From an uncultured Thermodesulfobacteriota bacterium (GTDB lineage Bacteria > Desulfobacterota > B13-G15 > RBG-16-54-18), in the NCBI GenBank assembly GCA_964459135.1, contig CAYWLI010000001.1, forward strand, positions 2,506 to 66,505: a DNA stretch of 64,000 bases, read 5' to 3'. Below the pieces are notes generated by a model. That model did not search any database, had not been told where the DNA came from, and saw only the letters and a program-made list of their open reading frames with translations. Position numbers and translations under genes: made by a program. This document shows, in pieces, positions 2,439 through 27,375 of the stretch. Within the stretch, counting starts at the first letter, position 1. Each line of letters begins with the position of its first letter.

Positions 2439-3941
2439 CTACTTGGCTTTACTCAGCATCTGTGTTCTCAATTCTCTCTTCAGGATCTTGCCGGCAGGGG
2501 ATTTTGGCAGCTCACTCACCGCGTGGAACTCCTTGGGGACCTTAAAAGGTGCGAGGCGCGTTTTCAGGAATGCCTTCAGTTCGTCCTTATCAATGGTCTC
2601 ACCCGGCTGGGGGATAATGTAGGCTGTTACCCGTTCCCCCCACTCCGGATCCGGGAGACCGATCACCGCACATTCTTGCACTTCAGGCCTGGTGTAAAGG
2701 ACCTCTTCCACCTCCCGAGGGTAGACGTTTTCACCGCCGGTGATGATCATGTCTTTGACCCGGTCGACGATGTACAGGTAGCCGTTTTCGTCAAAGACGC
2801 CGATGTCGCCGGAGCGGAACCAGTCGTTTTCCCAGAAGGCTTCTTTGGTTCCCTCGGGATTATTCAGGTATCCCTTCATGATGTTCCTGCCACGAATACA
2901 GATCTCCCCCTCTTTGCCTTGCGCAAGAAGCTGGCCTTGCTCATCCCTAATCTGCACCTCCACACCGGGCACCGTGGTTCCTATGGACCCGATGACATGG
3001 CGATAATAGTGATTATACGTCACCGCAGAGGCGGATTCCGTCAGGCCGTAGCCTTCATAAATGGTAAGCCCAGTCCGATCTTTCCACTGTCGAACAACCG
3101 CTGCGGCCATACTGGCCGCAGCGGAGAAGGAATAACGAACAGCCCCCATCTTCTCCTTGAGCCCCTCAACCCCCAGAAGGCGGACATACACCGTGGGAAC
3201 CGCAAAGAGCTTGGTTACTCGGCCGGCTGCAAGGATAGAGAGGACTCGATCCAGGTCAAAGGCAGGCAATATCTCCAGGCAACCGCCGCTCAGGATGGTC
3301 GCATTCATGATGTGCATCTGGCCAAATACATGGTTAAAGGGGAGAAAGCACAGAGCCCGGTCGGCCTCGGTCGAGCGTTCACTGAAGGCCACATTGTGAG
3401 CTGAGGTGTTGATGTTCTCATGGGTGAGCATTACCCCCTTGGGTATACCCGTGGTGCCTCCGGTGTAGAGGATGGCCGCCGTGTCGGACCGACCCCTTTC
3501 AACAGCCTTAAACGAAGGTGAGCCCTTATCCATGAGCTGCTGGAGGTCCAGGTCACCGCTCGGACTGATTATTTTCTCCAAGCCGCCCGATCCTTTGAAA
3601 CGTGCCAGGTCGTCTAACCTCTCATCCTCAGTAAAAATAATCCTCGGTTGTGAGTGATTTACCAGGAGGACCAGTTCGTCCCTGCTGAGCATGCTCGACA
3701 GGGCAACAACTACTGCACCAACCTTGAGAACGCCGAAGTAGAAGATCAGCCAATCGCCTGAATTGGGGGCGCACAGCGCTACGTGGTCACCAGGCTTTAC
3801 ACCCAGCCCCATGAGGGCCGTGGCCACCCTATTGGCCTTTTCATTGAGCTGCGCATAACTCGTCTCAGAGGACCCTTCGCTCGCCGCTGGCCGCTGGGGG
3901 AAGAAAAAAGCAGACCACTCTAAATTTGTCGCCAGGTTCAT
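2439..3941 (-). CDS. AMP-dependent synthetase/ligase (acyl-CoA synthetase, medium/long chain)
   Basis: 500 aa with the AMP-binding signature YTGGTTGIPKGVMLTHEN and C-terminal GLPDPEWGERV...LPKSPAGKILKRELR motifs. Confidence 0.85.
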   Translation of the reverse strand: MNLATNLEWSAFFFPQRPAASEGSSETSYAQLNEKANRVATALMGLGVKPGDHVALCAPNSGDWLIFYFGVLKVGAVVVALSSMLSRDELVLLVNHSQPRIIFTEDERLDDLARFKGSGGLEKIISPSGDLDLQQLMDKGSPSFKAVERGRSDTAAILYTGGTTGIPKGVMLTHENINTSAHNVAFSERSTEADRALCFLPFNHVFGQMHIMNATILSGGCLEILPAFDLDRVLSILAAGRVTKLFAVPTVYVRLLGVEGLKEKMGAVRYSFSAAASMAAAVVRQWKDRTGLTIYEGYGLTESASAVTYNHYYRHVIGSIGTTVPGVEVQIRDEQGQLLAQGKEGEICIRGRNIMKGYLNNPEGTKEAFWENDWFRSGDIGVFDENGYLYIVDRVKDMIITGGENVYPREVEEVLYTRPEVQECAVIGLPDPEWGERVTAYIIPQPGETIDKDELKAFLKTRLAPFKVPKEFHAVSELPKSPAGKILKRELRTQMLSKAK

Positions 3942-3974
3942 ACGTCAGCTCCTTGATATCGGCACGGCCTTGCT

Positions 3975-4727
3975 TTACTGTGGCGGGGCAATGCCCAACT
4001 TAATAAGGAGCTGCTTGACAAATTCCATTCCGTCCTCTTTGTACGCAGGAAGGACCCATGGCATGTCCTGCAGGGTTTGTAGCAGGTCAGGCAACAGATC
4101 AAAGGGGATAGCTACAAATTGTCGACCTTCGGGAAAGAGTTTCCTTCGCTTCATACCATGGCCAAGACCGGTGACGGCATAATTCAGTTCCCCGGTGAGA
4201 TAGGGATACGTTAAAATCCATGCGCATCCTATCGCGGGTGAGTACTTGCTCACCCACATCTTCCCCGTCCTATAGCTCATAGCCCTCAGCAAAATTTCCG
4301 TCTGGCTGGTCTCGGCAAGGATGATCAAGACATCCGGATCGAAGGTGAGCTTGTCCAACGGGGAAAAGGCAATATAGTTAACTACGTCTTTCCCTATCTT
4401 TGGGATATAGTGGTACAATCTACCGGCGGAACGCGGCTCCGCGAAGATCTTGAGCCCGGCCCCAAATGCGCCACTGATAAAAGGCCCTGGGGCATCTGCC
4501 TGCCCTAATACATACAGGCCAGCCTCACAGGTATGGTTTTTTGCGTCGGCAAAAAAGGCATTCCCTTCCTGCGCCCTCTTGAGCATTTCGCAGAGGGCCA
4601 ACTTTTCATCAAGCCGCTCAACCATATCCGGCCGTTGGGCCACGAATTTCACGCCTATCGGCGGTACGTCAAATGCAAACTTGTCTAAAATAGCTAATGC
4701 TTCTTGAGTGAGAATCATCTGATACAA
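3975..4727 (-). CDS. Conserved hypothetical protein, possibly DUF169 family
   Basis: 250 aa soluble protein. The family assignment comes from memory of the sequence pattern only. Co-oriented between the ACS and the liv SBP gene. Confidence 0.35.
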   Translation of the reverse strand: MYQMILTQEALAILDKFAFDVPPIGVKFVAQRPDMVERLDEKLALCEMLKRAQEGNAFFADAKNHTCEAGLYVLGQADAPGPFISGAFGAGLKIFAEPRSAGRLYHYIPKIGKDVVNYIAFSPLDKLTFDPDVLIILAETSQTEILLRAMSYRTGKMWVSKYSPAIGCAWILTYPYLTGELNYAVTGLGHGMKRRKLFPEGRQFVAIPFDLLPDLLQTLQDMPWVLPAYKEDGMEFVKQLLIKLGIAPPQ

Positions 4728-4808
4728 ATCCTTTCCAGTTTATCCAACTGTTAGAGAGTTTAAAAATTATAATATGATAAAACTTTCTTTTTGTTTTTAT
4801 GAGGGCAT

Positions 4809-4840
4809 CCAGGGGCTCTATTGAATAATAGAGCCCCTGG
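4809..4840 (-). other. Perfect 14-bp stem / 4-nt loop hairpin immediately downstream of the SBP gene (intercistronic stabiliser/attenuator)
   Basis: ccaggggctctatt-gaat-aatagagcccctgg. No U-run follows on either strand, so it is not a canonical intrinsic terminator. Confidence 0.5.
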
Positions 4841-4858
4841 AATAACACTGGGTCGTGC

Positions 4859-6115
4859 CTACTTTTTTGTATAGATGTGGCGCAATGGGTAGAGACCCAC
4901 TTGGACTACCTTACCCTTCTGCACCTGGTCGACACGCACCTCATCAACACCCTCTACATCGCCCGGAGCATAGGTTATCGGTGTGCTGCTGACCTCACCG
5001 GTTTCCATGTCTTTGATCTTGAAAAAGCCCTGTTCCAGCACGTCTTTCCGCGTGAGCTTTTCAAAAGGCACCTTTTTCATGGCCAGCCGTAACGCCTCAA
5101 CCTGGATCATGCCCTCCAGGAAACCACCTTCATACATGATATTGCCATTATATTTGCCGGGGTGAGCCATCTCCTGTATGTCGTGGCAAAATTTTACCCC
5201 CTTGACGGAGAGGTCATCCATGGGAGGGAAGCTACCGGCGCAGACATACCCGTCACCCATCTCACCCAAGGCCGGAGCAAGTAAAGCAGCGTGACCTGGC
5301 GAGGCGGTGCCGAAGACCATCTTATAGTCCAGATGGGGGCCCATCCCCAGCCTGACCATCTCCTTTACCGTGGGTTGTGCGCCGGCGTTGATCATGACGC
5401 CCAGGGCAAGATCAACGCCCTTTTGCTTGAGCCAGGTAAGCTGGGTGGTCGGCGGCGAGGTACACACCAGAGGCACATACTGGGTACCCACAAACTCATA
5501 GCCGATCTTCTCGAGATACGCCTTCATCTCAGGGATCTCGATCGACCTGCCCATGGCGTTGTCGGCGGTCAGGTAGGCAACTCGTGGTTTCCTCTTTTCC
5601 TTCCAGTTCTCTTTGAACCAGTCGGCGATGGCCGCACAGGCATCAGTATAAATAGGGTAATAGGTAAAGCAGCTTTGAGGCGGCGACAAGTAGTACGCGC
5701 CGGTGGCCATGCTCGTGCCCCCCATGTGATCCTCCCACATCCTATCCTTGAGTGCCAGCGCTATGGGCGACCCCGATATCCTGGCGACCAGCATTCCCTT
5801 GGCCTTGAGCTCCTCATAGATGGGCATCGCCTTGGACGGTTTGAGCTCATCATCCCGCCACATCACCTCCAGAGTTACATCGGCGGGCCATTTTTCTTTT
5901 CGCCACGGCGCCATTTTTTTGGTCTCATTGACATAGTTGGCATAGTCCTGAATGGCCATCAGCACTGCCGCTGAATCCTCGGCAAAGGGCCCGGTGAGCG
6001 ATTGGGTGCCACCGATATAGAGTACTTTTTCGGCATGGGCGCTCACAGGTAATAACGATGCTGCTGCTATTACCATAATCGCGCCAACTGCCAACATCCA
6101 TCTCATTTTAGCCAT
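4859..6115 (-). CDS. ABC transporter periplasmic substrate-binding protein (Liv/PBP1 family) with signal peptide
   Basis: 418 aa. N-terminal signal MAKMRWMLAVGAIMVIAAASLLPVSAHA. Its position is directly downstream of the livHM permeases. Confidence 0.75.
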   Translation of the reverse strand: MAKMRWMLAVGAIMVIAAASLLPVSAHAEKVLYIGGTQSLTGPFAEDSAAVLMAIQDYANYVNETKKMAPWRKEKWPADVTLEVMWRDDELKPSKAMPIYEELKAKGMLVARISGSPIALALKDRMWEDHMGGTSMATGAYYLSPPQSCFTYYPIYTDACAAIADWFKENWKEKRKPRVAYLTADNAMGRSIEIPEMKAYLEKIGYEFVGTQYVPLVCTSPPTTQLTWLKQKGVDLALGVMINAGAQPTVKEMVRLGMGPHLDYKMVFGTASPGHAALLAPALGEMGDGYVCAGSFPPMDDLSVKGVKFCHDIQEMAHPGKYNGNIMYEGGFLEGMIQVEALRLAMKKVPFEKLTRKDVLEQGFFKIKDMETGEVSSTPITYAPGDVEGVDEVRVDQVQKGKVVQVGLYPLRHIYTKK

Positions 6116-6279
6116 GTTCTTCCTCCTTTTTAATTTAAATACACGAATTAGTTTACACCCTCAACAAACCCCGTTTAAACTGTCGTACGTTGCACCTCCT
6201 TTCCCTGTTTTTTTTGGTTTTAAACAACTAACTATATACTACCTATGGGGTGTTCAATAAAAGTGTTTCTCACCCCCGT

Positions 6280-7335
6280 TCACTCTGATCCTTGATGAGA
6301 AAAGGGCCAAAGCCTGAAGTAGGCCTTGATCATCTCCCAGCGGTGATACAGCCCCCGGGGCTCGAAGATGAGAAATATGATGATTACCAAACCGTGTGAC
6401 ATGAGGGCCAGCGAGGCGGCTGCCTGGGGAGCGACGGCCGCGGATAGAACGGGTCCCGCCATCGTAACCAGCTCATCCAGCAGCCTGAGGGCAACGGCGC
6501 CAAAGATAGCCCCTGTCGTACTGCCCATACCCCCCACGATTAACATCCCCAGATACCAGACTGAATCCATAAAGGGGAACTGATCCGTACTGGCGAAACT
6601 AAAGTAGTGAATGAGCAATGCCCCGGCCACACCGGCATAGACGCAACCGATAAAGAATGCCTGCAGCTTGTAACTCCACAGACTGATCCCCATGACCTCA
6701 GCCGCCAGGTCATTGTCCCGGATGGCGATGAAGGCCCTGCCTGCCCTGGTCCGCACGATGTTTTTAGCCAGGAGCGTGGCCACACAGACAATTATCATCA
6801 CCAGGTAGAAATAGTTGGTCTTGGTGCCCAGCATGAGACCCCCTATCGCAGGGCTGGGCACGCTTAGGCCATCAACCCCCCCGGTGACGCTGCGGAGTTG
6901 GATGATGGTCCAGATGATGATAAAATGTGCCGCAATGGTCGCCATAATGAGGTAGAAGCCCTTGATCTTTAAGGACGGGAGTCCGAAGATCAAGCCTGCT
7001 ATCCCCGCAGCCAGGGCGCCGCATGGAAGGGTCACCCAGAACGGCAGGCCAAGCTTGGCGCACAAAATAGCCGAGGTATAGCCGCCGACTGCCATAAAGC
7101 CCGCATGCCCGATGGAGATCTGATCGCAGTACCCGGTGAGAATATTGAGGCCGTGGGCGCTGATAACGGCAATGCCCATCATGGTCAGTAAGGTCAGTAT
7201 TCGGTCGCTGGCAAAGAGGGGGCAGACGAAGAGAAGGATGAGGAAGGCCGCTAAAACTCCCCAATGCAGCTTGGTAGGGAAGATAGCCATATCCTGCGCA
7301 TAATTTTCGTGGAAGGTTCCGGAGCCAAGACCCAT
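6280..7335 (-). CDS. livM: Branched-chain-amino-acid-type ABC permease LivM
   Basis: 351 aa polytopic membrane protein of the LivM-like permease family, adjacent to livH. Confidence 0.75.
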   Translation of the reverse strand: MGLGSGTFHENYAQDMAIFPTKLHWGVLAAFLILLFVCPLFASDRILTLLTMMGIAVISAHGLNILTGYCDQISIGHAGFMAVGGYTSAILCAKLGLPFWVTLPCGALAAGIAGLIFGLPSLKIKGFYLIMATIAAHFIIIWTIIQLRSVTGGVDGLSVPSPAIGGLMLGTKTNYFYLVMIIVCVATLLAKNIVRTRAGRAFIAIRDNDLAAEVMGISLWSYKLQAFFIGCVYAGVAGALLIHYFSFASTDQFPFMDSVWYLGMLIVGGMGSTTGAIFGAVALRLLDELVTMAGPVLSAAVAPQAAASLALMSHGLVIIIFLIFEPRGLYHRWEMIKAYFRLWPFSHQGSE

Positions 7336-7338
7336 GGG

Positions 7339-8226
7339 TTAAATCCTCTCTATCCTGACCAGGCCAAAGAGCCCGTACGGTCTGAAGATGAGCACGATGA
7401 TCATAACAATAAAGGGAAATACCTGGGCCAGACCGCCCCCGGGGAGGAGTGGGTCCAGGTAACCGGCAGCCACATTCTCCAGCATACCCAGTATTATGCC
7501 GGCCAGAATGGCGCCGCCGATGGAGTTCAGCCCACCCAGCAGCACGACGGCGAATGCCTTGAGGCCGATATCGGCGAGCGCAATATGCGCGCCGGATACG
7601 CCCCCCAACAGGATGCCGCCGATGACCCCTACGATACAGGCAATGACCCATGAGACGGCGTAGACCGTAGTTGCCTTGATACCGAGGCTCTGCACCACCT
7701 GTAGATCCTCGGCAGTGGCCCTCATCGCCAGCCCGATCTTGGTATAACGGAAGAGGAGCATGAGCAGCACCATACAGATAACAGACACGATGAGTCCAAT
7801 CAATGACTCGGAGGGTACGGATATCGCGCCTATCTTCAGGGTTATAGTCGGCAGTAATCCATGATACGGCTTGTATTCGCCCCCCCAGAGCAGGGTTGCC
7901 AACCCACCCAATAGTGAGGCAAGGGCTATGGTCACCATAACCACAGCGAGTACCGGCTCACCCAGCAGGGGGCGGAGGGTAAGGCGTTCTATTGCCAGGC
8001 CCATGAAGGTTGCCGTAACTATTGCCAGACCGAGGGCGGCCCATATCGGCAGGCCGAACGGCACCAAGAAGGTATAACCGAGATAACCGCCGATCAAGAC
8101 AAAGTGCCCCTGCGCAATGTTAAACACCTCGGAGCATTTCAGGATGATCACAAAGCCAATAGCGATGAGTGCATAGATCATGCCTTGGGCAAGGCCGGTT
8201 ACGACTAATTGAAGGAAGAAATTCAT
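7339..8226 (-). CDS. livH: Branched-chain-amino-acid-type ABC permease LivH
   Basis: 295 aa. N-terminus MNFFLQLVVTGLAQGMIYALIAIGFVIIL is LivH-like. Confidence 0.75.
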   Translation of the reverse strand: MNFFLQLVVTGLAQGMIYALIAIGFVIILKCSEVFNIAQGHFVLIGGYLGYTFLVPFGLPIWAALGLAIVTATFMGLAIERLTLRPLLGEPVLAVVMVTIALASLLGGLATLLWGGEYKPYHGLLPTITLKIGAISVPSESLIGLIVSVICMVLLMLLFRYTKIGLAMRATAEDLQVVQSLGIKATTVYAVSWVIACIVGVIGGILLGGVSGAHIALADIGLKAFAVVLLGGLNSIGGAILAGIILGMLENVAAGYLDPLLPGGGLAQVFPFIVMIIVLIFRPYGLFGLVRIERI

Positions 8227-10274
8227 GCGGTACCCTCTCTCGTAGATTTTTTAGCGGATTTTTGACCTTGCTTTTTAGTAGACTTTGTAACTGCCTTCTT
8301 TACAGATTTTTTAGCATGCTTCGACTGTTTAGAAGACTTAATAACTGACTTGATCCTCAGCATCGTCTTTACGGTGCCCATCCTGCCATCCTGGGATCCT
8401 ATCTGAGCTTCTATCGGCACCTCGGCCTTATCATCATAGATTGCTCGGATCAGCGTGCGATAACGTTCTGCTAAAAAGTGCCTTCTCAATTTCCTGGTTC
8501 TGGTTAATTCACCCTCGTCAGGATCGAATTCCTTGTGGAGAATAAGGTATTTTCCCACCCTGGAGCCGGGAGGAACGCTCCTGTTTACCTCGTCGATATC
8601 GTGCTTTATCAAGTCATAGACCTCGGGCCTCTGGGAAAGCTCGGCGAAGTTGCTGAATGCCACCCCCCGCTGCCCTGCCCATCTGCTGACCGTATGAGAG
8701 TCGATTACTATGATAGCCGATGGATAGGCCTTTTGAGGCCCGGCCAGAACCCAAGCGTCTTTTATATACGGGCTGAACTTTAGGCGGCTCTCTATCACTT
8801 GGGGGGCCAGGCTGTCTCCGCCGGCCAGCTCAACCAGATCCTGTACCCTATCGACAAAAACAAGGTGTCCGTCTTGCCTTATGAAACAACTGTCTCCACT
8901 GCAGAACCATCCCTTTCTCAGCTCCTTGGCGGTCTGTTTCGGCTCCTTATAATAGCCGATGAAGGTACCAGGATGCCGATACATGAGTTCACCATCAGCG
9001 GATATTCTTACCTCTATTCCCTTGTGCACAGGGCCGACAGTATCTAACCGGATGTCATCATTCGTGGCGCCAGTCAGAATGCCACCCTCGGTTGTCCCAT
9101 ACAGGCTTTTGAGAGGAATATTAAGGGCATGATAGAACCTGAAGGCATCGGGACTCAAAACAGCCCCGAGGGTATAACAGATTCTGGCATTGGACAGACC
9201 CATGTGCTTTCTGATGGGCCTTAAGAGGACGAGATAAGCCAAGCCATACACTATGGTGAGGAATACATTTGGTTTCTTCCCCTGCAACTTCACATCGGCC
9301 ATCCTATAGCCGATGGGCATGAACAGACGGAAGGCAAACCGCTTGATGGCGTCAGCGGTGAGAATCTGTGCGTGAACCGTGGCTGCCTGGCTCCCCCAGA
9401 GGCGGGCCCCTTGGAATACAATGCTGGGTTCTATCTCTTGGGCATCCCGTTGCTGGGTTTCCGGCGCTTCTGCGAAGTTCAACGTGCTTGCTGACAGCAG
9501 GTGGCACCCGATCGCGAACCATTGCTCAGTTATCCAGGCTGGCGGCAGGGTAGGGACAACTTCATCACTCTCGTACCAGGGGTCGAGCTGCAGGAGAGAC
9601 TCAGCACTAGCCCTCATCGTCCTATAGGTGTGGACAGCCCCCTTGGGGGCGTCCCCGGTGGTTCCCGAGGTGTACACGATGGCGCAGACATCATCAGCCG
9701 TGCCGCTTTTCACGTGGTCCTCAAAAACGCCGGGGGTTGTCTTTTCGTAGTGTTCACCAAGACCCCGCACCTCCCGATATCCCATTAACAGGGGGTCATC
9801 AGCGTGGGCGAGTCCTTTATAGTTCCAGTAAATAATCTTTTTGAGCAGGGGAAGTTCCCCCTTGACTTCGAGCAGCTTATCAACCTGCTCTTGATCTTCA
9901 ACAATAGCAAATCCCGCCTCTGAGTTTTCGGCAATATATTGTATCTCCTGCGGCGTTAAATCCGAATATACCCCCACTGACACCCCATGGATAGCCTGAG
10001 CGGCAAGCTCGGCAAAATACCACTGGGGGGCATTATCCCCGATAATAAGTACCTTATCTTCTGGTTTGAATCCGAGGGCGAGTAAACCGAGCGCCAGATA
10101 TTTGACATTGAGATAGTAGTCCTCCCACGTATAAGGCTGCCAGATACCATAGTGCTTATGGCGCATGGCTCGATGCCGAGAGCCATATTGTTCATAGTTA
10201 TAGGTGAGGATTTGGGGCCAGGTATCACCCTCTGTGCCGTTGAATTGGTCTAATTGGTCTGTTCCGGCCGTCAT
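8223..10274 (-). CDS. Long-chain-fatty-acid--CoA ligase (AMP-forming) with an unusual Lys/Ser-rich C-terminal tail
   Basis: 683 aa with the AMP-binding core (VYTSGTTGDAPKGAVHTYRT). The C-terminus is KSSKQSKHAKKSVKKAVTKSTKKQGQKSAKKSTREGTA. It overlaps the livH start by 4 nt. Confidence 0.8.
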   Translation of the reverse strand: MTAGTDQLDQFNGTEGDTWPQILTYNYEQYGSRHRAMRHKHYGIWQPYTWEDYYLNVKYLALGLLALGFKPEDKVLIIGDNAPQWYFAELAAQAIHGVSVGVYSDLTPQEIQYIAENSEAGFAIVEDQEQVDKLLEVKGELPLLKKIIYWNYKGLAHADDPLLMGYREVRGLGEHYEKTTPGVFEDHVKSGTADDVCAIVYTSGTTGDAPKGAVHTYRTMRASAESLLQLDPWYESDEVVPTLPPAWITEQWFAIGCHLLSASTLNFAEAPETQQRDAQEIEPSIVFQGARLWGSQAATVHAQILTADAIKRFAFRLFMPIGYRMADVKLQGKKPNVFLTIVYGLAYLVLLRPIRKHMGLSNARICYTLGAVLSPDAFRFYHALNIPLKSLYGTTEGGILTGATNDDIRLDTVGPVHKGIEVRISADGELMYRHPGTFIGYYKEPKQTAKELRKGWFCSGDSCFIRQDGHLVFVDRVQDLVELAGGDSLAPQVIESRLKFSPYIKDAWVLAGPQKAYPSAIIVIDSHTVSRWAGQRGVAFSNFAELSQRPEVYDLIKHDIDEVNRSVPPGSRVGKYLILHKEFDPDEGELTRTRKLRRHFLAERYRTLIRAIYDDKAEVPIEAQIGSQDGRMGTVKTMLRIKSVIKSSKQSKHAKKSVKKAVTKSTKKQGQKSAKKSTREGTA

Positions 10275-10300
10275 AACCTCATGCCCTTCTCTTTACTAAA

Positions 10301-11095
10301 TTACGCAAGCCATCTCTTCTTGCGCCGATAGTGCTTAACGTCACGATAGCTCTTTTGGGAACCAAGGGCTGACAGCCCCAAATAGAATTCCTGGACATCC
10401 GCATTATCTCTGAGCTGATCTGCCGGTCCATTCAGCACGACCCTGCCATTTTCTATGATATAGCCATAATGAGCGAGACCGAGGGCAGCCCGGGCATTTT
10501 GCTCTACGAGGAGTATTGATACCTTTTCTTCGGCATTAATTCCCCGAATAATCTCATAGATCTCTTGCACCAGCAAAGGGGCCAGGCCGAGGGAAGGCTC
10601 ATCCAGCAGCATCACCTTGGGGCGTGCCATGAGCGCACGCCCTATCACCAACATCTGCTGTTCACCGCCTGACAGATAACCGCTCATCTGCCGGCGGAGA
10701 TCTTTTATCTTGGGAAACCAGTCAAAGACCATTTCTATGTCCCGCTTGATTTGAGCCCGGTCTTTGCGGGTGTAGGCGCCCACCAGCAGGTTTTCCTCCA
10801 CACTGAGGTGCTCAAGGACCCTTCGTCCTTCCATGGCCTGGCTTATACCCAGGGCAGCGATATACTCAGGGCCGTACCGGTCTATCCGCTTACCGTTAAA
10901 TTCGATGCTGCCGTCGGTGACCTCTCCCTCTTCCGTCTTGAGCATCCCTGATATCGCCTTGAGGGTAGTGGTCTTGCCCGCACCATTGGCCCCAAGAAGG
11001 GCGACGATCTTGCCGTCACCGACCTCGAGGGATACGCCCCGGAGCACCTGAATCACACTCATGTAGGCTACTTCAATATTTTTTAGTTCGAGCAT
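10301..11095 (-). CDS. livF: ABC transporter ATP-binding protein LivF
   Basis: 264 aa with Walker A GANGAGKTT, the LSGGEQQ signature and Walker B LLDEPS. LivF-like N-terminus. Confidence 0.85.
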   Translation of the reverse strand: MLELKNIEVAYMSVIQVLRGVSLEVGDGKIVALLGANGAGKTTTLKAISGMLKTEEGEVTDGSIEFNGKRIDRYGPEYIAALGISQAMEGRRVLEHLSVEENLLVGAYTRKDRAQIKRDIEMVFDWFPKIKDLRRQMSGYLSGGEQQMLVIGRALMARPKVMLLDEPSLGLAPLLVQEIYEIIRGINAEEKVSILLVEQNARAALGLAHYGYIIENGRVVLNGPADQLRDNADVQEFYLGLSALGSQKSYRDVKHYRRKKRWLA

Positions 11096-11129
11096 TTTGT
11101 CGCATCTACCTTAGCGTTATAGTTTCTGC

Positions 11130-11948
11130 TTATTGTTCCTGCCCCAGGTAAGCGCTGATGACCTTGGGGTTAGCCTTGATCTCGGCAGGGGTACCCTCGG
11201 CAATCTTGCGCCCAAAGTCCAGGACGACAATTCTATCGGCGATGTCCATAACCACTCCCATATCATGTTCGACCAGGATGATACAACTAACCCCATCCCT
11301 CAGAACGGGGGTGTCAAGATAGGTGGTTCCCTGCCCTTCAAATATATCAATGATGAATCGGGCGATATCCTCCTTTTCCTCCAGGTTCATCCCCGCCATC
11401 GGCTCGTCAAGCAGCAGTATTGTCGGTTCCAGGGCTAATGCCCTTCCCAGTTCAATCCTTTTTCGCATCCCGTATGGCAGGACACCAACGACTGTTTTTC
11501 TAATCGGTGCTATCTCGAGGAAGTCGATAATCTCCTCTGCTGTCCGGCGCTGCTCGATTTCCTCCTTCAATGCCCAGCCAAGGTAGAGCGCCCCCGTGAT
11601 AAAGTTTTGCCGCATAAGCACGTGCCGGGCAGCCATGATATTATCTTCGGTGCTGAGCCCGGCGTACAGCTCGATATTCTGAAAGGTCCTCGCAATCCCG
11701 CGTTTAGCCAGTTTATCCGGTCGCTTTCGGGTGATTCTCTTCCCGTCGTAGTATATCTCACCTTCTTGCGGTTTGTAGAAGCCATTGATACAGTTGAGGA
11801 GGGCGGTCTTGCCGGCGCCATTCGGTCCGATAATGGCCAGTATCTCTTTATCCCTAACATCAATGCTCACGTCAATAAGGGCCTGGACGCCGCCAAAGCT
11901 CAGCGAGAGGTGGTCAATCCGCAATTTTACTTGCTTATTATCTTTCAC
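11130..11948 (-). CDS. livG: ABC transporter ATP-binding protein LivG
   Basis: 272 aa with GPNGAGKT and the LivG-like NCINGFYKPQEG motif. Confidence 0.85.
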   Translation of the reverse strand: MKDNKQVKLRIDHLSLSFGGVQALIDVSIDVRDKEILAIIGPNGAGKTALLNCINGFYKPQEGEIYYDGKRITRKRPDKLAKRGIARTFQNIELYAGLSTEDNIMAARHVLMRQNFITGALYLGWALKEEIEQRRTAEEIIDFLEIAPIRKTVVGVLPYGMRKRIELGRALALEPTILLLDEPMAGMNLEEKEDIARFIIDIFEGQGTTYLDTPVLRDGVSCIILVEHDMGVVMDIADRIVVLDFGRKIAEGTPAEIKANPKVISAYLGQEQ

Positions 11949-12202
11949 CGTTACAGTCTCTTAGACAATGCAATCTATGGAATATTCATTCTTTGAAGGA
12001 TGCAATGCTTCACCTATATCATTTTTTTAAAAAAGTCAAGCCTTTTGTTCATAATTTGAAAAACCAGCCCGAACAAATGAGACCTTTATTCCCCTTTCGA
12101 AAAGGGCCGCTTAAGAATTTTCATAGAATCTCATAAAGCACTCTTCCTCATATCTCAAAAAACGCAGATTCAAAATTAACTACCATATTTTGAACAAATA
12201 AA

Positions 12203-12231
12203 TTGACTTTTTAAAAATTTTGATATACATA
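12203..12231 (+). promoter_or_regulatory. Candidate promoter of the XRE-cupin regulator (TTGACT-17-TACATA). The predicted transcript is (near-)leaderless.
   Basis: ttgact-ttttaaaaattttgata-tacata ends ~8 nt before the ATG at 12240. No Shine-Dalgarno sequence is present. The -10 region overlaps a TGATATACA motif that is also found upstream of the corrinoid operon. Confidence 0.35.
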
Positions 12232-12239
12232 TACACATT

Positions 12240-12764
12240 ATGGACGTCGGCAATAGAATTCGCGAGTTACGAAAGCGCTCAGGATTTTCGATGAAGCAGC
12301 TCGCTGAAAAAGTGGGGGTGAGCTACTTAACCATCTATAGAATTGAAACCGGTAAAGTAAGCCCATCAGTAACGCTCTTGAATGATATAGCTTCTCATCT
12401 TAATTATCCGATCTTTTCCTTTTTCGATCAAAAGGCAAAAGAGATTGTCCATATCAAAGCTAATAAACAACCTGTTATTGCAAGCGAAAAGCTTCAATTA
12501 AAGCTCCTTGCTCCACGGGGTTTCATAGACGATAATATCGCCATTAGCTTTGGAAAGGCTGAAAAGGGAGAATTTATCAGCAAGCATACAAACAGAGGAG
12601 CTGAGCTTGCCTACGTAACCAAGGGCAAAGGTATAGTAAAGTATGGCGATACTGAATATGAACTCAAAGAGGGTGATCTGATCTATTTCCAAGGGGAAAC
12701 CCCTCATACGGTGGTTGCCTTGGAGCCTCATGAGTTCATTATAATACATTTTATCGATAAGTGA
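12240..12764 (+). CDS. XRE-family HTH transcriptional regulator with a C-terminal cupin domain
   Basis: N-terminal RIRELRKRSGFSMKQLAEKVGVSYLTIYRIETGK (HTH_3). C-terminal cupin-like GDTEYELKEGDLIYFQGETPH. Confidence 0.8.
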   Translation: MDVGNRIRELRKRSGFSMKQLAEKVGVSYLTIYRIETGKVSPSVTLLNDIASHLNYPIFSFFDQKAKEIVHIKANKQPVIASEKLQLKLLAPRGFIDDNIAISFGKAEKGEFISKHTNRGAELAYVTKGKGIVKYGDTEYELKEGDLIYFQGETPHTVVALEPHEFIIIHFIDK

Positions 12765-12858: not shown

Positions 12859-13713
12859 TTATCCAGTGGTAGTACCTTGGCGTTGTCTGTAATCCTTAAT
12901 GTAGCGCTGGGCAAACCGGTCGCGGCCGAGGATAAGATCGGTGGCCAAGATCGTTGATCGCACCTGTGCTGCATCCACAGTGGGACAGGTTACTCCCGCT
13001 TCGATAGCCAGGGATAAAAAGGCCTTGTTGACCAGCGGCCTATCCGGCAACCCGAAGGATATATTGCTTGCGCCCAATGTCTGATTCACACCGAGCTGCT
13101 CCTTGACCGTGCGGATGGCTTGAAGCGTAACGAACCCGGCCCGATCGTCCGAACCCACCGCCAGGGCGAGACAATCGATGATGATGTCCTCTCGGGGAAT
13201 CCCCAGAGACGCTGCTCGCTCGATGATTTTATTCGCGACCTCCAGCCGCTTTGCAGGCTCCTTCGGGATCCCGCTATCATCGAGGGCCAGCCCGATAACG
13301 GCGGTCCCATACTCCTTTACCAGCGGCAACACCTCATTGAGGGATCGCTCTTCGCCGGAGACTGAATTCACGACGGGTTTCCCCTCGTATACCGTGAGGG
13401 CCTCTTTAAGGGCCGCGGGATTGTTGATGTCGATACACAGGGGTACATCCACCGCAGCCATGATCGTTTCAATGGCTTGAGGAAGAACGGAGATTTCATC
13501 CACATCAGGGACCACGACATTGACATCCAGGATGTCCGCTCCGGCTTCGACCTGGGCTATCGCCTCCTGACGCACCACATCAAAATCACCTGCCTTTAAT
13601 GCCGCTGCCAGCTTCTTCTTGCCGGTCGGGTTGATGCGCTCGCCGATCAGGATGGTCGGTCCGCTGTCACTGATGACGACCTCTCTTTGTGCGCTTGATA
13701 CCTTGGTTTCCAT
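12859..13713 (-). CDS. Pterin-binding methyltransferase (methylcorrinoid:tetrahydrofolate methyltransferase, MT II, MtvA/AcsE-like)
   Basis: 284 aa TIM-barrel pterin-binding (DHPS-like) pattern: ILIGERINPTGKKK...ADILDVN...NSVSGEE. Confidence 0.7.
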   Translation of the reverse strand: METKVSSAQREVVISDSGPTILIGERINPTGKKKLAAALKAGDFDVVRQEAIAQVEAGADILDVNVVVPDVDEISVLPQAIETIMAAVDVPLCIDINNPAALKEALTVYEGKPVVNSVSGEERSLNEVLPLVKEYGTAVIGLALDDSGIPKEPAKRLEVANKIIERAASLGIPREDIIIDCLALAVGSDDRAGFVTLQAIRTVKEQLGVNQTLGASNISFGLPDRPLVNKAFLSLAIEAGVTCPTVDAAQVRSTILATDLILGRDRFAQRYIKDYRQRQGTTTG

Positions 13714-13775
13714 AAGAAGGGTTACTCTCCTTTAAATTTGTTAGGCTTTCGGTATTCGATCTCCACGCTTGCTGC

Positions 13776-15119
13776 TCAACGGTACACACCATATTCCTTT
13801 GAGAAGTCGATCATGGCCTTGACATTTTCCGCCCTGGACCCCTGTATGCCCGCACCGGATGAAAGGATAAATCCGCCATCCTTTCCCGCCGTGTCGATGA
13901 GCTTTTTACAATAGTCTTTCACATCGTCGGGCGTACCGGTGCAGAGCAGATCCAAAGGCACATTTCCTGCGATACAGGATACCGTGCCGACAGTCTCCTT
14001 TGCCCGGGCCATGTCCGTCGTGTCGAACCACCAGACGGTCTTACCTTTCGGAATATCACAAATGGCTTCAAGACGCTGGTTATAGCCTCCTTCCGCAAAT
14101 AGCTGTGGGACTATCCCCGCATCGATGAGACCGATGATGAGCTTTCGCAGAGACGGCCAATAAAAGGTCTTAAACTGTTCATCAGACATAAATCCATCGG
14201 CCCCCTTGTGAAGTGGGATGAAGGGGATGATATGACCGGCGGCTTTGCATGATGCCACACCGCATTTAATCATAAAAGGGGTTATCCTCTCACAGGCCTC
14301 GAGAAGCTCATCCGGGTGTCGAAACATATCCATCAATACGCCTCGAGTGCCCCTGAGGCTGTCCCCGATAACATCAAAAGGCGCCTTGGTAAGTCCAGCT
14401 GCAGAGGAGGGGTATCCCTTCCCCATGATCGATGCGCTGACCTGGCCCACAGCAGAGAGCCATGCGGTGACTTCATCGCCCCCATCACTCAGCTTCTTGA
14501 AGGCCGCTTTCACATCCTCCATGCCAAAAGGCATCAGTGCCGGCGGCACCATGGGAATCTCGTGTACGGGTGGTAATAAGGGCATTTTTGCTAAGGGAGT
14601 TAAGGCACCAAAGATCCGTGGGAAATAGACAGTGAGAAAAAATCCGGTGGGGTCATCGATCAATGCCTGGTACTCCTCTGCCTTCATATACTCACCCTCG
14701 ACAAACTGGTACTCCTGATGCTCTCGCAGGCCATGGCCTGCCCATTGGTATAGGTTGAAATCCAGCATGTCGAGCGCTTTGCCAGGAACAATAGTCCGAG
14801 GGGTACTAAAGGTATCAGGGGCAAAATCGACATGAAACTTTTCCCAGGCATAGGCCAGTTTGTCATAGTCATACATGGCGTCATGCCAGCTAATGCCGGC
14901 GTATTCGATGGGGAAATGACCTGCTGAGGGGGATATCGGAATGCGCGCGGGGGTCTTCTTCAGTTGAATCGCATCTTTTATGAGGGTCACCCGGTCCTTA
15001 TAAGCCGCTTCAGCCTCCGAGTTCTCGAAGGTGATATTTTTGCCTGAAAGCCAGACGTGAAACTGTTGTTCCTGCCTTTCCTCAGCATCAGGAGATGCGT
15101 CCATCCATCTCTCCCTCAT
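13776..15119 (-). CDS. Uroporphyrinogen-decarboxylase (URO-D)-family methyltransferase (substrate:corrinoid MT I, MtvB/MtaA-like) with an N-terminal extension
   Basis: 447 aa with UroD/MtaA-like C-terminal features. Its operon position lies between the corrinoid protein and the pterin methyltransferase. Confidence 0.65.
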   Translation of the reverse strand: MRERWMDASPDAEERQEQQFHVWLSGKNITFENSEAEAAYKDRVTLIKDAIQLKKTPARIPISPSAGHFPIEYAGISWHDAMYDYDKLAYAWEKFHVDFAPDTFSTPRTIVPGKALDMLDFNLYQWAGHGLREHQEYQFVEGEYMKAEEYQALIDDPTGFFLTVYFPRIFGALTPLAKMPLLPPVHEIPMVPPALMPFGMEDVKAAFKKLSDGGDEVTAWLSAVGQVSASIMGKGYPSSAAGLTKAPFDVIGDSLRGTRGVLMDMFRHPDELLEACERITPFMIKCGVASCKAAGHIIPFIPLHKGADGFMSDEQFKTFYWPSLRKLIIGLIDAGIVPQLFAEGGYNQRLEAICDIPKGKTVWWFDTTDMARAKETVGTVSCIAGNVPLDLLCTGTPDDVKDYCKKLIDTAGKDGGFILSSGAGIQGSRAENVKAMIDFSKEYGVYR

Positions 15120-15123
15120 ATCA

Positions 15124-15786
15124 TTACGCTCCTATCCACTTCTTCGCCAGGGCAATGCCCTCCATGGCATCCTTGCCAAAGGCATCGGCACCGGCATGCT
15201 CCCGCACCTTTTCGCTCATCTGAGCACCCCCGATCATGATCTTGACCGTGTCACGCAATCCGGCTTCCTCGATGGCCTGAACCGTACGCTTCATGGAATC
15301 ATAGGCAAGGGTGAGAAGACCACTCATGCCCACGACCTGGGGCTGGAACGCCTTGATCTCGTCCACGAATGTGCCCGGGGGAACGTCAATCCCGATATCG
15401 CGCACCTCAAAGCCGTTCACCTCGAGGAGAAAGGTGACGATATCCTTGCCGATGTCATGAATGTCCCCTTCCACGGTCCCCATGAGTACTTTCCCCCGTT
15501 TCCCCGAAGTCGCTTCACCGTGCAGCTTTGGTTTGACCATCTCAGAGATCTGCTTCAACATATCACCGGCCAGCATCAGCTCGGGAAGAAAATAGGTCTC
15601 CTCCTCAAAACGCTTCCCCACTATTTCCATGGCCTTGGAGCAATCATCCAGGATCTTCAGAGGGTCTTCATCACCATCGAGCAAGACCCTGGCTATTGCG
15701 AGGGCCTCTTGCTCCCTCATGGTACTCATGGCATCGACCAAGCTATCAGACATGCTCTGTATCTCCTTCCGCCCCCTTTCCCCCAC
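15124..15786 (-). CDS. Corrinoid (cobalamin-binding) protein, MtvC/MtaC-like
   Basis: 220 aa with the B12-binding DxHxxG motif (GDIHDIGKDIV) preceded by a B12-binding_2 cap helix region. Confidence 0.85.
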   Translation of the reverse strand: MGERGRKEIQSMSDSLVDAMSTMREQEALAIARVLLDGDEDPLKILDDCSKAMEIVGKRFEEETYFLPELMLAGDMLKQISEMVKPKLHGEATSGKRGKVLMGTVEGDIHDIGKDIVTFLLEVNGFEVRDIGIDVPPGTFVDEIKAFQPQVVGMSGLLTLAYDSMKRTVQAIEEAGLRDTVKIMIGGAQMSEKVREHAGADAFGKDAMEGIALAKKWIGA

Positions 15787-15967
15787 TCATCTAAGGGCAT
15801 AATACTAACATATGACAATAGTGGTAGATATAAAGTTATATATATAATTTTGTCAAGGGGAAAAATGCTCTTTTCGAAAAAAAGTCATGCTGTGAATAGT
15901 GCCTTTCTGCTTTACATGTTTTTTGTACATCATGTCTATTTTTAATTGATTTTTGGTCCGCCTGCTA

Positions 15968-15990
15968 TGATATACAAAGTGATATACAAA
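15968..15990. promoter_or_regulatory. Tandem direct repeat (TGATATACAAA x2, 12-bp period) upstream of the corrinoid operon; candidate operator
   Basis: tatGATATACAAAgtGATATACAAAaaaag. The same TGATATACA core occurs at 12221-12229 in the XRE-cupin promoter. Confidence 0.4.
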
Positions 15991-16023
15991 AAAAGAGGTG
16001 GTACCAGGCACTCGGTACCACCT
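15988..16023 (-). terminator. Rho-independent terminator of the CoA-ligase gene
   Basis: Perfect 10-bp stem aggtggtacc / ggtaccacct with an 8-nt loop, followed on the minus strand by a run of 7 U. Confidence 0.7.
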
Positions 16024-16065
16024 CCAGTTTGTATGTAGAGAATATCTACCCTTATTCGTGATGCC

Positions 16066-17724
16066 TTATCCAGTTGCCTGGAGCTTCTTCTCTATGTCTT
16101 GGCGGAGGGACCGTTTATCCACTTTTTCCGCACCGGTATGGGGCATAGTCTCGATAAATTCGATCCGCTCCGGAAGCTGAAGCACAGAGGCCTTCTCCCC
16201 TTTCAAGAAAGAGATGATTTCCTCAAAGGATAGCTTGGCCCCGGCTTTGGGCTGGACATAGGCACAGACCCGTTCGCCCATAAGCGGATCGGGCATCGGG
16301 ATGACGGCCACTGCCGCGACATCTGGGTGACGGGTGATGAGGCTCTCGATTTGCGTGGCGCTGATACTCTCACCACCCCGGTTGATCATCTCCTTGATGC
16401 GGCCGGTGAGTGTGATGAATCCCTTTTCATTGATCTTGGCCACGTCTCCGGTCCTGAAGAACCCGTCCTGAGTAAATACCGCCTTGTTTTCCTCTGGGTT
16501 GTTGTAATAGCCCGTAAATACACCGGGGCCCTTCAGTACCAATTCCCCCTCTTTATGGGTGGGGAGTTCATTACCCTCTGGATCGATGACCTTATACGTG
16601 TCATACGGGCAGGTGGGTCTCCCCACGGTTGTACAGATGGTCTCTAAACTATCAATGGTGCGCGTGATGGTCGTCATTCCTTCTGTTGCGCCATATCCGT
16701 TGTAAAACTTCATGTGCAGTTTTTCCGTGACCTCCTTGACCAGATCGGGGTGGCTTGCCCCCCCTGCGCTGTGCATCTTTTTCAAGGTGCTCAAATCATG
16801 CTTATTAATATCCTTATATTGGAGCATCTTTTGCGCCAGTGTGGGGACCCAGATGATCGAGGTAATTTTCTCCTTTTCAATGGTCTCACATATCTCCTTG
16901 TCGTCTGTAGAATCCAGGAATACGACCTTTCCACAGGTAAAAATACTCCCGAGGAAACCCTTGGAGAATGTCAAATCATGCCCTATCGGTCCCGCAAGGA
17001 GGGTAATATCCTCGCTGGTCTGGTCCCACGACTTGGAGCAATATTCGGTGCCGGTAATGAGACTATTGTGTGTGCGGGGGACAATCTTGGGTGCTCCGGT
17101 CGTCCCTCCGGTCGGTCCCATATGGGCCACCTGCATGGGATCCGGCCGCCTGCCGGCGAGCCGAGCCAGGTTGTCCTCGGTCAATGCAGACTCTTCGATC
17201 AGTCTTTCGAGGCTGGCAAAGGGCCGCTGATCCCCTTCCCCCCGGACAGTAATGACATGCGTAACGTCAGGATGCTCCTTCAGGACATCTGTAATAATGG
17301 GGATGTAGTCTGTTTTTTTGTATCGGGAGGCGACAATCCAGGATGTGGCCCCGGTAAGGCTAATGAGGTGGTTTATTTCAAACTGCCGGTATCGGTCGAT
17401 CAACAATACGGGGATGGCCCCGATCTTTTGAACGGCAAAATAGGCAAAAACGAATTCGTTCCAGTTCGGAAGCTGAACCAGGACCCGGTCCAAGGGCTGG
17501 ATGCCCAAATCCATCAGGCCGATGGCCAGCTTATTCGTCTTTTCCCGAGTCTCCCCATAGGTCAGGCGCGTCTGACGATCCACAAAGGCCTCTTTGTCAG
17601 GGTGGATATCCGCAGCCCTGTCGAGGATATCTCCGAATGTTAGTCCAGACCACCATCGAAGTGCGTTATACTTTTCTGCATCTTCTTTTTTATAGGGGAT
17701 AACTCCTTCCAGAAGCCTTACCAT
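16066..17724 (-). CDS. AMP-dependent aryl/acyl-CoA ligase (benzoate-/dihydroxybenzoate-AMP ligase-like)
   Basis: 552 aa with an AMP-binding core (GPTGGTTGAPKIVPRTHNS) and a C-terminal adenylation subdomain. Confidence 0.8.
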   Translation of the reverse strand: MVRLLEGVIPYKKEDAEKYNALRWWSGLTFGDILDRAADIHPDKEAFVDRQTRLTYGETREKTNKLAIGLMDLGIQPLDRVLVQLPNWNEFVFAYFAVQKIGAIPVLLIDRYRQFEINHLISLTGATSWIVASRYKKTDYIPIITDVLKEHPDVTHVITVRGEGDQRPFASLERLIEESALTEDNLARLAGRRPDPMQVAHMGPTGGTTGAPKIVPRTHNSLITGTEYCSKSWDQTSEDITLLAGPIGHDLTFSKGFLGSIFTCGKVVFLDSTDDKEICETIEKEKITSIIWVPTLAQKMLQYKDINKHDLSTLKKMHSAGGASHPDLVKEVTEKLHMKFYNGYGATEGMTTITRTIDSLETICTTVGRPTCPYDTYKVIDPEGNELPTHKEGELVLKGPGVFTGYYNNPEENKAVFTQDGFFRTGDVAKINEKGFITLTGRIKEMINRGGESISATQIESLITRHPDVAAVAVIPMPDPLMGERVCAYVQPKAGAKLSFEEIISFLKGEKASVLQLPERIEFIETMPHTGAEKVDKRSLRQDIEKKLQATG

Positions 17725-26472: not shown

Positions 26473-27375
26473 ATGGATAATTCCATCGATACCGTCACCA
26501 AGGCCTTTGAACATCAGTCTCCGCGCCGTCCGCCGAGGGGGGAACTGTGGTTGGGCACAGAGCTGCTGAAGAAGGCGAACCTTGAAGACACCCTGGAAGG
26601 CCATCTCGCGCTGATAAAGCGTTTAGGCCAAGACATCATGTGTCTTCCCCTATCCAGTGAGAGTAAGATGAACGAGGCCCTTGGCTACCGATACTTCGAT
26701 TTACAAGGGCTTGCGGAGGCCTCAAGGATTAATGATCTCTTTGTCATGGCGCTCATCGATGGCCCCTTTCAGAGGCTTGCTGAAAAAAGGGGGTTGACGA
26801 ACGTCCTCACCGGATGGAGACGGGAACGGTATGAATTTAAAAAGGCGTATGAGCAAGAGCGGGCAGCGGTAGATGTTCTGATAAGGAGGAGTCTTGAGCT
26901 GTTAGTTGGTGCTGTTGTGGTAGCGGATGATGTAGCTGGAGAACGCGCTCCGTTTATTGGCCCTAACGATCTTCAAGAGCTTTGTTCCCTCTTTTATACC
27001 CAGGCGGTCTCCGAAATTCATAGCGGGCATGCGTACGCCCTGCTTCATTCCTGCGGCAATATCACGAGGTTAATCCCTCATCTTGTTTCATATGGCTTCG
27101 ACGGCCTGGCAGCCATTCAGCATCGGATCAATGACCTTATTGCTTTAAAAAAACTCTACGGATCCACTCTTACTTTTATGGCCGGGATCGAGGCAGAGGT
27201 GTTAGAGGCAGAGGAACTCTCTTCGTCCGACAGGAAGGAATATAAAAAGATTATCCGGGCCCTTGCCCCGGATGGTGGTTTTGTCATCTGCTCATCCAGC
27301 GGTCTGTATGCCGATGATTTTCTTGAAAGGGTACAAGAGCTTTATCGAATCGCCGACACACTATACACCGGATAA
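26473..27375 (+). CDS. URO-D-family (MtaA-like) methyltransferase, short form
   Basis: 300 aa with a UroD/MtaA-like C-terminal half including an LLHSCGN zinc-site-like motif. Confidence 0.55.
   Translation: MDNSIDTVTKAFEHQSPRRPPRGELWLGTELLKKANLEDTLEGHLALIKRLGQDIMCLPLSSESKMNEALGYRYFDLQGLAEASRINDLFVMALIDGPFQRLAEKRGLTNVLTGWRRERYEFKKAYEQERAAVDVLIRRSLELLVGAVVVADDVAGERAPFIGPNDLQELCSLFYTQAVSEIHSGHAYALLHSCGNITRLIPHLVSYGFDGLAAIQHRINDLIALKKLYGSTLTFMAGIEAEVLEAEELSSSDRKEYKKIIRALAPDGGFVICSSSGLYADDFLERVQELYRIADTLYTG

Follow-up and report, generated by a model that had tools for sequence, protein, structure and literature searches.

The 9-nt word TGATATACA, which occurs at the promoter of an XRE-cupin regulator gene and again upstream of a corrinoid-dependent methyltransferase operon, is real, yet its sharing between the two places falls inside chance expectation. 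In the stretch of DNA analysed here (the window, 64,000 nt from an uncultured Thermodesulfobacteriota bacterium), the two occurrences are likely, although well short of certain, to belong to unrelated features that have nine bases in common: a self-regulated XRE-cupin promoter with an inverted twin, and a chance duplication. As judged from the comparison of lineages, the true partner of the XRE promoter is the putative promoter of a divergent ABC-transporter operon at 12010-12041, and this ABC transporter/CoA-ligase operon is most likely the local target of the regulator. The elements on the regulator side are the following.

12240 to 12764, plus strand: XRE-cupin regulator gene, 174 amino acids, HTH_3 and Cupin_2 (Pfam domains).
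12201 to 12232, plus strand: P_xre, conserved promoter/operator block and candidate operator (conservation in nine lineages; block model).
12221 to 12229, plus strand: TGATATACA, the extended −10 element of P_xre, TG-n-TATACA.
12010 to 12041, minus strand: P_abc, the inverted twin of the P_xre block, GCTTGACTTTTTTAAAAAAATGATATAGGTGA, putative promoter of the divergent operon (block model; inverted repeat I1).
2439 to 11948, minus strand: divergent Liv-type ABC transporter/CoA-ligase operon, comprising two ABC ATPases, an AMP-ligase, two permeases, a Peripla_BP_6 binding protein, DUF169 and a second AMP-ligase.

The regulator combines an N-terminal Cro/C1-type helix-turn-helix domain (HTH_3, PF01381, E = 5.5e-14, residues 7-58) with a C-terminal cupin sensor domain (Cupin_2, PF07883, E = 1.5e-11, residues 108-165), in which H116, E122 and H156 are invariant in 31 homologs. 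The exact protein was found only in salt-marsh metagenome contigs of one population, and these contigs (L001-L008) are uninformative because their upstream regions are identical to that of the window. Comparisons were drawn from protein homologs at 47-93% identity, which led to 120 loci, nearly all from uncultured Thermodesulfobacteriota (for example, MAGs of Desulfatiglandales and Desulfobacteraceae); further look-ups added close regulator lineages and orthologous corrinoid operons.

Within the window's own clade, nine lineages whose proteins are 76-100% identical have in common a block of 26-32 bp before the regulator gene, with the layout TTGACT-TTTTAAAAA-N3-TGATATAC(AT). In the window, this block consists of a −35 hexamer, TTGACT (12203-12208), a 15-nt A/T spacer, TTTTAAAAATTTTGA, and an extended −10 element with TG at 12221-12222, A, and TATACA at 12224-12229; with TTGACT close to the −35 consensus and TGnTATA in agreement with that of the extended −10, the layout is that of an extended −10 promoter of the sigma-70 type. 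The original prediction had placed the word at the −10 region of the XRE-cupin gene, and its coordinates are exact: TGATATACA occupies 12221-12229 and is followed by TATACAC at 12230-12236 and by the ATG at 12240. A generic promoter scan that allows spacers of 16-18 nt did not list P_xre, whose spacer has 15 nt. Seven of the nine lineages retain the word; the second half of the 17-nt string originally put forward (tatacac) is not conserved, and other lineages have GTTAAC, GGTATC or ACGCAT in its place.

The 26-bp block is 88% identical in pairs of lineages whose 4-fold synonymous sites are 52% identical, and the DNA further upstream diverges, with weak alignment between the more distant lineages. 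The A/T spacer, which is only weakly read by RNA polymerase, is as strongly conserved as the hexamers, and the non-consensus hexamer TATACA is itself conserved. This pattern points to strong purifying selection on the whole of P_xre, spacer included, which fits autoregulation. The autoregulation that had been predicted is plausible on these grounds, the binding of the protein to its promoter being a step that we infer.

When a 32-bp block model trained without the window's sequences was scanned over the 64 kb, P_xre ranked highest (36.4 bits), the inverted twin scored 32.3 bits, and the next best site in the 64 kb reached 4.8 bits; the two copies of the word upstream of the corrinoid operon scored 2.1 and −15.2 bits. 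The twin, one arm of a 44-nt inverted repeat, I1, lies 224-461 bp upstream of the XRE ATG in eight of the nine lineages; a pattern search found none in the remaining lineage, L135. It is kept nearly unchanged as the ABC promoter in L148 and L149, where the adjacent XRE gene is absent. A divergent Liv-type ABC component beside the XRE gene is conserved in six lineages (the window, L138, L049, L051, L129 and L130), and in L129, L130 and L051 the divergent gene encodes a Liv-type periplasmic binding protein. I1 was also considered as a pair of MITE-like terminal inverted repeats and rejected: the spacing of its arms (224-461 bp) varies by lineage and each arm keeps its promoter geometry. A 6-4-6 palindrome in the twin block, ACTTTT-N4-AAAAGT, was likewise set aside, since L129 and L130 have it in perfect form and the other lineages do not conserve it. 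In some lineages long gaps separate the twin promoter from the divergent gene; a search of the window and four related loci against Rfam gave no riboswitch or small RNA, and thus no explanation for these gaps.

The likely nature of the protein's binding site emerges from more distant homologs. In a de novo count of 5-mer dyads over 78 non-redundant upstream regions of homologs, TATCA-N4-TGATA was by far the strongest palindrome (10 regions, 0.02 expected), and only one further dyad passed the threshold, ATATC-N6-GATAT, which is this palindrome shifted one base outward. The full 16-bp form, ATATCA-N4-TGATAT, stands at the fixed positions −26 and −57 from the ATG in about 25 distant homolog lineages (47-54% identity); the palindrome at −26 covers the −10 element and that at −57 lies just upstream of the −35 element. 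The palindrome-bearing homologs differ little or not at all in the recognition-helix region (residues 26-44), and one of them, L094, matches the window's protein at all of these residues and has the palindrome in its own promoter. TGATAT within TGATATACA corresponds to the right half-site of this family palindrome, and, because the recognition helix is shared, it is plausibly a true half-site of the window's XRE-cupin protein. No palindromic left half-site is recognisable in the window's own promoter block: in this clade the TGATAT half and a conserved A/T spacer are kept, and the left half is replaced by TTAAAA. The family palindrome model gave 13.05 bits at the XRE promoter, 12.84 bits at the core promoter of the corrinoid operon and 11.35 bits at the tandem pair described below, compared with 17.5-29.8 bits for the training sites. 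Its best match in the window (17.5 bits) is at 57068-57087, within the first part of a rhodanese gene, and probably arose by chance.

These features suggest a most likely mechanism. The inverted twin at 12010-12041 would drive the divergent ABC/CoA-ligase operon, and an XRE-cupin dimer would bind within the P_xre and P_abc blocks via the TGATAT half-site. Binding of the dimer would occlude both promoters and so repress the regulator's own gene together with the transporter/ligase operon, and a ligand in the cupin domain would then release the repressor.

The transcript of the regulator gene had been predicted to be leaderless, and several features make this plausible. The ATG is fixed at 10 nt after the −10 hexamer in the lineages compared (12229 is the last base of the −10 in the window, and the ATG begins at 12240), and these 10 nt are A/T-rich, of the ATATACACATT type, with no GGAG; a Shine-Dalgarno sequence before the ATG was found in none of the nine lineages. 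The start codon is ATG in eight of the nine and TTG in L049. An in-frame TGA (12204-12206) lies inside the −35 hexamer, no start codon intervenes between it and the ATG at 12240, and the N-terminal residues G4, R8, R11 and K12 are invariant across homologs, which together indicate translation from ATG 12240. Several database gene calls begin instead at the internal Met18 and give 157-aa versions of the protein, as typically happens when a start codon has no Shine-Dalgarno sequence; leaderless expression would explain this truncation. The mRNA is thus probably leaderless or carries a leader of 2-4 nt; as judged from the promoter geometry, transcription would start 0-4 nt before the ATG. The lambda cI gene, when transcribed from P_RM, is a leaderless autoregulated repressor gene, and the window's gene resembles it in being an XRE-type repressor gene with a −10 element immediately upstream of the AUG, no Shine-Dalgarno sequence and a candidate operator overlapping the promoter. 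Unlike in lambda cI, the −10 element ends 10 nt before the ATG, so that a leader of 2-4 nt is as likely as a start at the AUG itself, and the window's regulator shows no sign of a phage context.

The second site of the word lies beyond a convergently oriented operon, among the following elements.

12859 to 15744, minus strand: corrinoid-dependent methyltransferase operon, with a corrinoid protein and URO-D-family and pterin-binding methyltransferases (Pfam).
15827 to 15856, minus strand: putative core promoter of the corrinoid operon, −35 TTGACA (15856-15851), 18-nt spacer, −10 TATATC (15832-15827).
15968 to 15990, plus strand: tandem pair TGATATACAAA-G-TGATATACAAA, reading TTTGTATATCAC-TTTGTATATCA on the operon strand, directly after the terminator U-tract.
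15994 to 16025, minus strand: intrinsic terminator hairpin of the AMP-ligase gene (16066-17724), 13 pairs, 7 of them G-C, with the U-tract tail TTTTTTTGTAT.

Three-component corrinoid O-demethylase/methyltransferase systems of anaerobes consist of MT-I, a corrinoid protein, MT-II and a RACo-type activator. The window resembles them in its B12-binding corrinoid protein, its URO-D-family and pterin-binding methyltransferases (domains PF02310 and PF02607; PF01208; PF00809) and a RACo activator gene at 24577-26406; the system is known here from its genes, and a link of the XRE-cupin regulator to the window's operon is not supported. The XRE gene is convergent with the operon, whose corrinoid protein probably starts at ATG 15744, behind the ribosome-binding site GGAGAT; upstream of the operon lie the AMP-ligase gene (16066-17724), TRAP transporter genes and then an IclR regulator. 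L153, L138 and L149 match the core promoter at 29 of 30 positions and L152 at 28 of 30, and the promoter is conserved even in the absence of an adjacent XRE gene (L149). The ligase hairpin has the characteristics of an intrinsic terminator (−29 kcal/mol, z = −5.0) and is kept in all six lineages aligned over the ligase-to-corrinoid region, with a differing stem sequence.

The tandem pair was found exactly where it had been predicted, at 15968-15990 with a 12-bp period, and it does abut the minus-strand ligase terminator. Its position is 112-135 bp upstream of the −35 element and about 160 bp upstream of the putative start site of the operon, right after the terminator and not at the promoter core. 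Only the window (WIN), L153 and L138, which are sister lineages, have two copies; L152, L144 and L149 have a single copy that reads TGAGATACA or CGAGATACA. On the operon strand, the hairpin is followed by these sequences.

WIN: TTTTTTT-GTATATCAC-TTT-GTATATCAT-AGCAG.
L153 and L138: TTTTTTT-GTATATCAT-TTT-GTATATTAT-AGCAG.
L152: TTTTT-GTTT-GTATCTCA-AAGCA.
L144: TTTT-GTATCT-GTATCTCAC-GGCAG.
L149: TTTTT-GTTT-GTATCTCGAT-GCAG.

The single copy TGAGATACA, which matches the shared word at 8 of 9 positions, is presumably ancestral. In L138 and L153 the promoter-proximal copy lacks the invariant TG and reads TAATATACA, and a search of 1.05 Mb of related loci found the tandem arrangement at this orthologous position alone. 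The ligase-to-methyltransferase gap of L051 (87% XRE identity) and L129 (82%), where the regulator is convergent with a pterin methyltransferase and a ligase and the corrinoid and URO-D genes are absent, contains no TGATATA word, and none is present near the methyltransferase gene in the short contig of L130 (83% XRE identity), which ends before any ligase gene. The tandem pair is most likely a young duplication in the terminator tail, in which the word after the ligase U-tract would recently have been doubled by 12-bp slippage, and the pair probably matches the XRE promoter by coincidence and is most likely not an operator of the XRE-cupin regulator. Three further roles for the repeat were tried and rejected. 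As a plus-strand promoter, its best −35, TTGATT, has a 19-nt spacer and the transcript would run into the terminator hairpin; as the enhancer site of a sigma-54 promoter, it would accompany a GGCAC...AGC element whose spacing is wrong and which is not conserved; and as an IHF site it does not fit WATCAANNNNTTR.

The word has no exact copies in the 64-kb window other than those at 12221-12229, 15968-15976 and 15980-15988. Three copies compare with 0.29 expected from whole-window shuffles, an expectation that overstates the rarity, since two of the three result from a single duplication event and all three lie in intergenic DNA of 31-37% GC in a window of 53% GC. Distinct 9-mers common to different intergenic regions of the window number 108 (31 regions, 5.4 kb). 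When the operon-upstream region was shuffled with its dinucleotides preserved and its duplication collapsed to one copy, at least one 9-mer in common with the 45-bp XRE promoter core appeared in 23% of trials (P = 0.23), and no shared word of 10 nt or more exists between this core and the operon-upstream region. A wider likeness of the two intergenic regions (6 common 9-mers, 1.5 expected, P = 0.03, including AAAAAAGTCA and CTTTTCGAAAA) was set aside; the words concerned are A/T runs and a local palindrome that are not conserved in orthologs.

XRE-cupin factors form a known family of regulators; E. coli PuuR is one comparable local repressor. In Pseudomonas, such factors are local repressors that bind as dimers to palindromes in the intergenic region beside their own gene, presumably occluding promoters, and autoregulation has been suggested for several characterised members (Trouillon et al., 2021; PMC7901475). 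Like ErfA, PsdR, PauR and PA0535 of Pseudomonas (Trouillon et al., 2021; PMC7901475), the window's regulator has an N-terminal HTH_3 and a C-terminal Cupin_2 domain, its gene neighbours transporter and enzyme genes that belong to a small-molecule pathway, the adjoining intergenic region holds a candidate operator that overlaps the promoter cores, and its distant homologs carry a palindromic operator. It differs from them in that its host is an uncultured Thermodesulfobacteriota bacterium and the protein is known here from sequence alone, in that its block is without a recognisable palindromic left half-site and its mRNA appears leaderless, and in that it would act on genes for a Liv-type ABC transporter and CoA ligases rather than on polyamine or dipeptide genes. 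The best match to a solved structure is 1Y9Q, an HTH_3-family protein of Vibrio cholerae, which covers both domains (query residues 3-161, E = 3.4e-7) and was also the template on which ErfA was modelled (PMC7901475); the two sequences show low similarity, and neither a function nor an operator has been described for 1Y9Q.

The original prediction takes TGATATACA for a shared operator to which the XRE-cupin protein binds in both places, its own promoter and the tandem pair, which would place the corrinoid operon in its regulon. We consider this unlikely, whether the distal site is taken to act by looping to promoter-proximal DNA, as a roadblock after the ligase terminator, or as an operator newly created by the duplication. 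In its favour, the 64 kb contain three exact copies of the 9-mer and no others, the word holds the conserved TGATAT half-site of the family operator, and the exact word is confined to lineages that keep the XRE gene beside the operon. Furthermore, the tandem pair read as ATATAC-AAAG-TGATAT fits the 6-4-6 palindrome at 10 of 12 positions (11.35 bits, compared with 13.05 at the XRE site and at least 17.5 in training), and the repeat is 21/23 identical between the window and L138, with flanks at 58/74 and 80/114 (70-78%); the binomial estimate for this difference, P of about 0.03, comes from a single comparison of self-similar sequence. XRE-cupin factors also regulate neighbouring genes (PMC7901475). 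The tandem copies have, however, just 9 nt in common with a conserved block of 26-32 bp, as their low block-model scores and the lack of any shared 10-mer reflect, and a common 9-mer arises by chance in almost a quarter of the shuffles. The three pair-bearing lineages are sisters and so represent a single evolutionary event, two of them have lost the TG from the promoter-proximal copy, and related loci with an XRE gene and a pterin methyltransferase lack the site. The pair abuts a terminator about 160 bp upstream of the start, whereas characterised repressors are thought to occlude promoters, and dimeric XRE proteins bind palindromes, direct repeats not being their usual target. A related proposal, which we regard as quite unlikely, is that the duplication after the terminator has newly made a low-affinity XRE-cupin site, ATATAC-N4-TGATAT, from two direct copies of TGATATAC, and that the corrinoid operon is now being captured into the regulon; such a site, if real, could block read-through from the ligase operon or act by looping. 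Several observations run counter to the preferred reading of two unrelated features: besides the palindrome fit of the tandem pair and the conservation of the repeat, the 9-mer is rare in absolute terms (three copies where 0.29 are expected), the window's own promoter block shows no evident palindromic left half-site, and the regulator could still control the methyltransferase genes through another site, as is conceivable from the convergent order of the XRE and pterin-methyltransferase genes, conserved in six lineages.

The repeat might also have a function that does not involve the XRE-cupin protein, serving another factor whose direct repeats are spaced by about one helical turn, such as an OmpR/PhoB-type response regulator as upstream activator of the corrinoid operon, or extending the U-rich tail of the terminator and thereby strengthening termination; we hold this to be very unlikely. 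Sites of winged-helix response regulators typically have direct repeats with a 12-bp period, which would suit the first possibility, but no response-regulator gene occurs among the neighbours examined, the nearby regulators being of the IclR, GntR and XRE types. The second possibility is suggested by the start of the repeat within the U-tract and by the predicted fold, in which TTTGTAT pairs with an ATACAAA located 5′ of the hairpin, but this ATACAAA partner is specific to the window. At least one copy of the word follows the terminator in each of the six lineages, and its copy number and sequence vary among close lineages, which argues against strong constraint. To a last alternative, that TGATATACA at the XRE gene is only the extended −10 element read by RNA polymerase and that one strong, constitutive type of promoter is simply present twice, as the block and its twin, without repressor binding or autoregulation, we likewise give very little credence. 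The near-consensus promoter elements and the persistence of the twin in L148 and L149 without an adjacent XRE gene would agree with it. The constraint on the A/T spacer, which equals that on the hexamers, and the conservation of the non-consensus TATACA speak against it, as do the clear palindrome that distant homologs have over the same −10 position and the autoregulation suggested for several characterised XRE-cupin factors (PMC7901475). A self-regulated XRE promoter with its inverted twin, and a chance duplication at the ligase terminator, therefore remains the preferred reading.

The regulation of corrinoid-dependent demethylase systems is, to our knowledge, poorly understood, and the original prediction, if true, would have named a regulator for such an operon in uncultured relatives of sulfate reducers. 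The regulator appears to point instead to its own gene and to the divergent ABC/CoA-ligase operon, as is standard for XRE-cupin local repressors; it would be an ordinary local regulator and a typical member of its family, which leaves general understanding unchanged. The comparison yields an operator/promoter model for the clade, consisting of the 26-32 bp block and its inverted twin, a family palindrome, ATATCA-N4-TGATAT, at −26 and −57, and comparative support for leaderless expression of the regulator.

Upstream of the corrinoid methyltransferase operon, the minus strand carries a direct repeat of the form ATGTA-N7/8-ATGTA (ATGTACAAAAAACATGTA) at window 15915-15932, roughly 100 bp ahead of the inferred start site. 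Of the six orthologous operons, four retain this repeat. Its conservation exceeds that of the tandem pair at 15968-15990 from the original prediction, and the repeat could be a real upstream regulatory site. A copy of the originally proposed 9-mer with one mismatch, TGATGTACA, is found at the same position. The promoter of the methyltransferase operon itself occurs in two forms (window 15827-15856 versus loci L144, L129 and L051): a short form, TTGACAAAATTATATATATAACTTTATAT, and a longer form composed of TTGACA, an 18-nt spacer, TATAA(A/C) and then the near-palindrome TATAAC-AA-GTTATA. The genes for the corrinoid protein and the URO-D-family methyltransferase follow this promoter on its 3′ side in some lineages and are absent from that place in others.

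In the closest orthologous operon (L138-L143, 7896-11000), an insertion separates the corrinoid-protein gene from the gene for the URO-D methyltransferase; it encodes a second TRAP transporter (DctP, DctQ, DctM). The window harbors a second small corrinoid module at 26473-28915, which adjoins the RACo activator gene (24577-26406). This module comprises a URO-D-like gene together with genes for a GntR/UTRA regulator and for a corrinoid protein that shares 37% identity with the first one.

A further word, CTTTTCGAAAA, is also common to the two intergenic regions (window 12088-12107 and 15865-15880). At 12091-12107 it is located within a local palindrome, CCCTTTCGAAAAGGG, between the two divergent promoters of the XRE-cupin gene and the ABC transporter operon; at the corrinoid operon site, it is not conserved in orthologs. 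Two related loci (L148, 3281-3631; L149, 5042-5392) have no XRE-cupin gene between the pterin methyltransferase gene and the ABC operon. Both keep the ABC promoter block, but its spacer is now ATATC-T-GATAT, a perfect 5-1-5 palindrome.

An XRE-cupin ortholog with 91% identity is encoded at L049 (5983-7597; also L009 and L050). Its -10 element has lost 3 bp (TGATAAATA), its start codon is TTG, and it is followed by an IS1595-family transposase gene in the place held by the methyltransferase operon in the window. This regulator locus may be a decaying copy; the source MAG, CAZFIR01, also carries L010, a paralog-like locus at 87%.

Within the cupin domain of the XRE-cupin regulator, H116, E122 and H156 (window 12585-12707) do not vary among 31 homologs, which suggests that this sensor domain has a site coordinating a metal or a ligand.

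Upstream of the XRE-cupin ATG, the 16-bp palindrome ATATCA-N4-TGATAT is present twice in distant homologs that show 47-54% identity (L118, L025, L021, L024, L033, L034, L043, L094 and about 15 other loci). Within the window, the top match to this family palindrome (TAATCTCACATATGATTTTT, 17.5 bits, 57068-57087) falls inside the opening codons of a gene for a rhodanese, the true start of which is likely the ATG near 57100, and is probably due to chance. In the distant homologs, the copies are fixed at -26 and -57 from the ATG, with a spacing of 31-32 bp, such that one covers the -10 element and the other lies immediately 5′ of the -35 element. Because only 5-10 nt separate the -10 element from the ATG in these homologs, leaderless autoregulated expression may be general across this XRE-cupin family.
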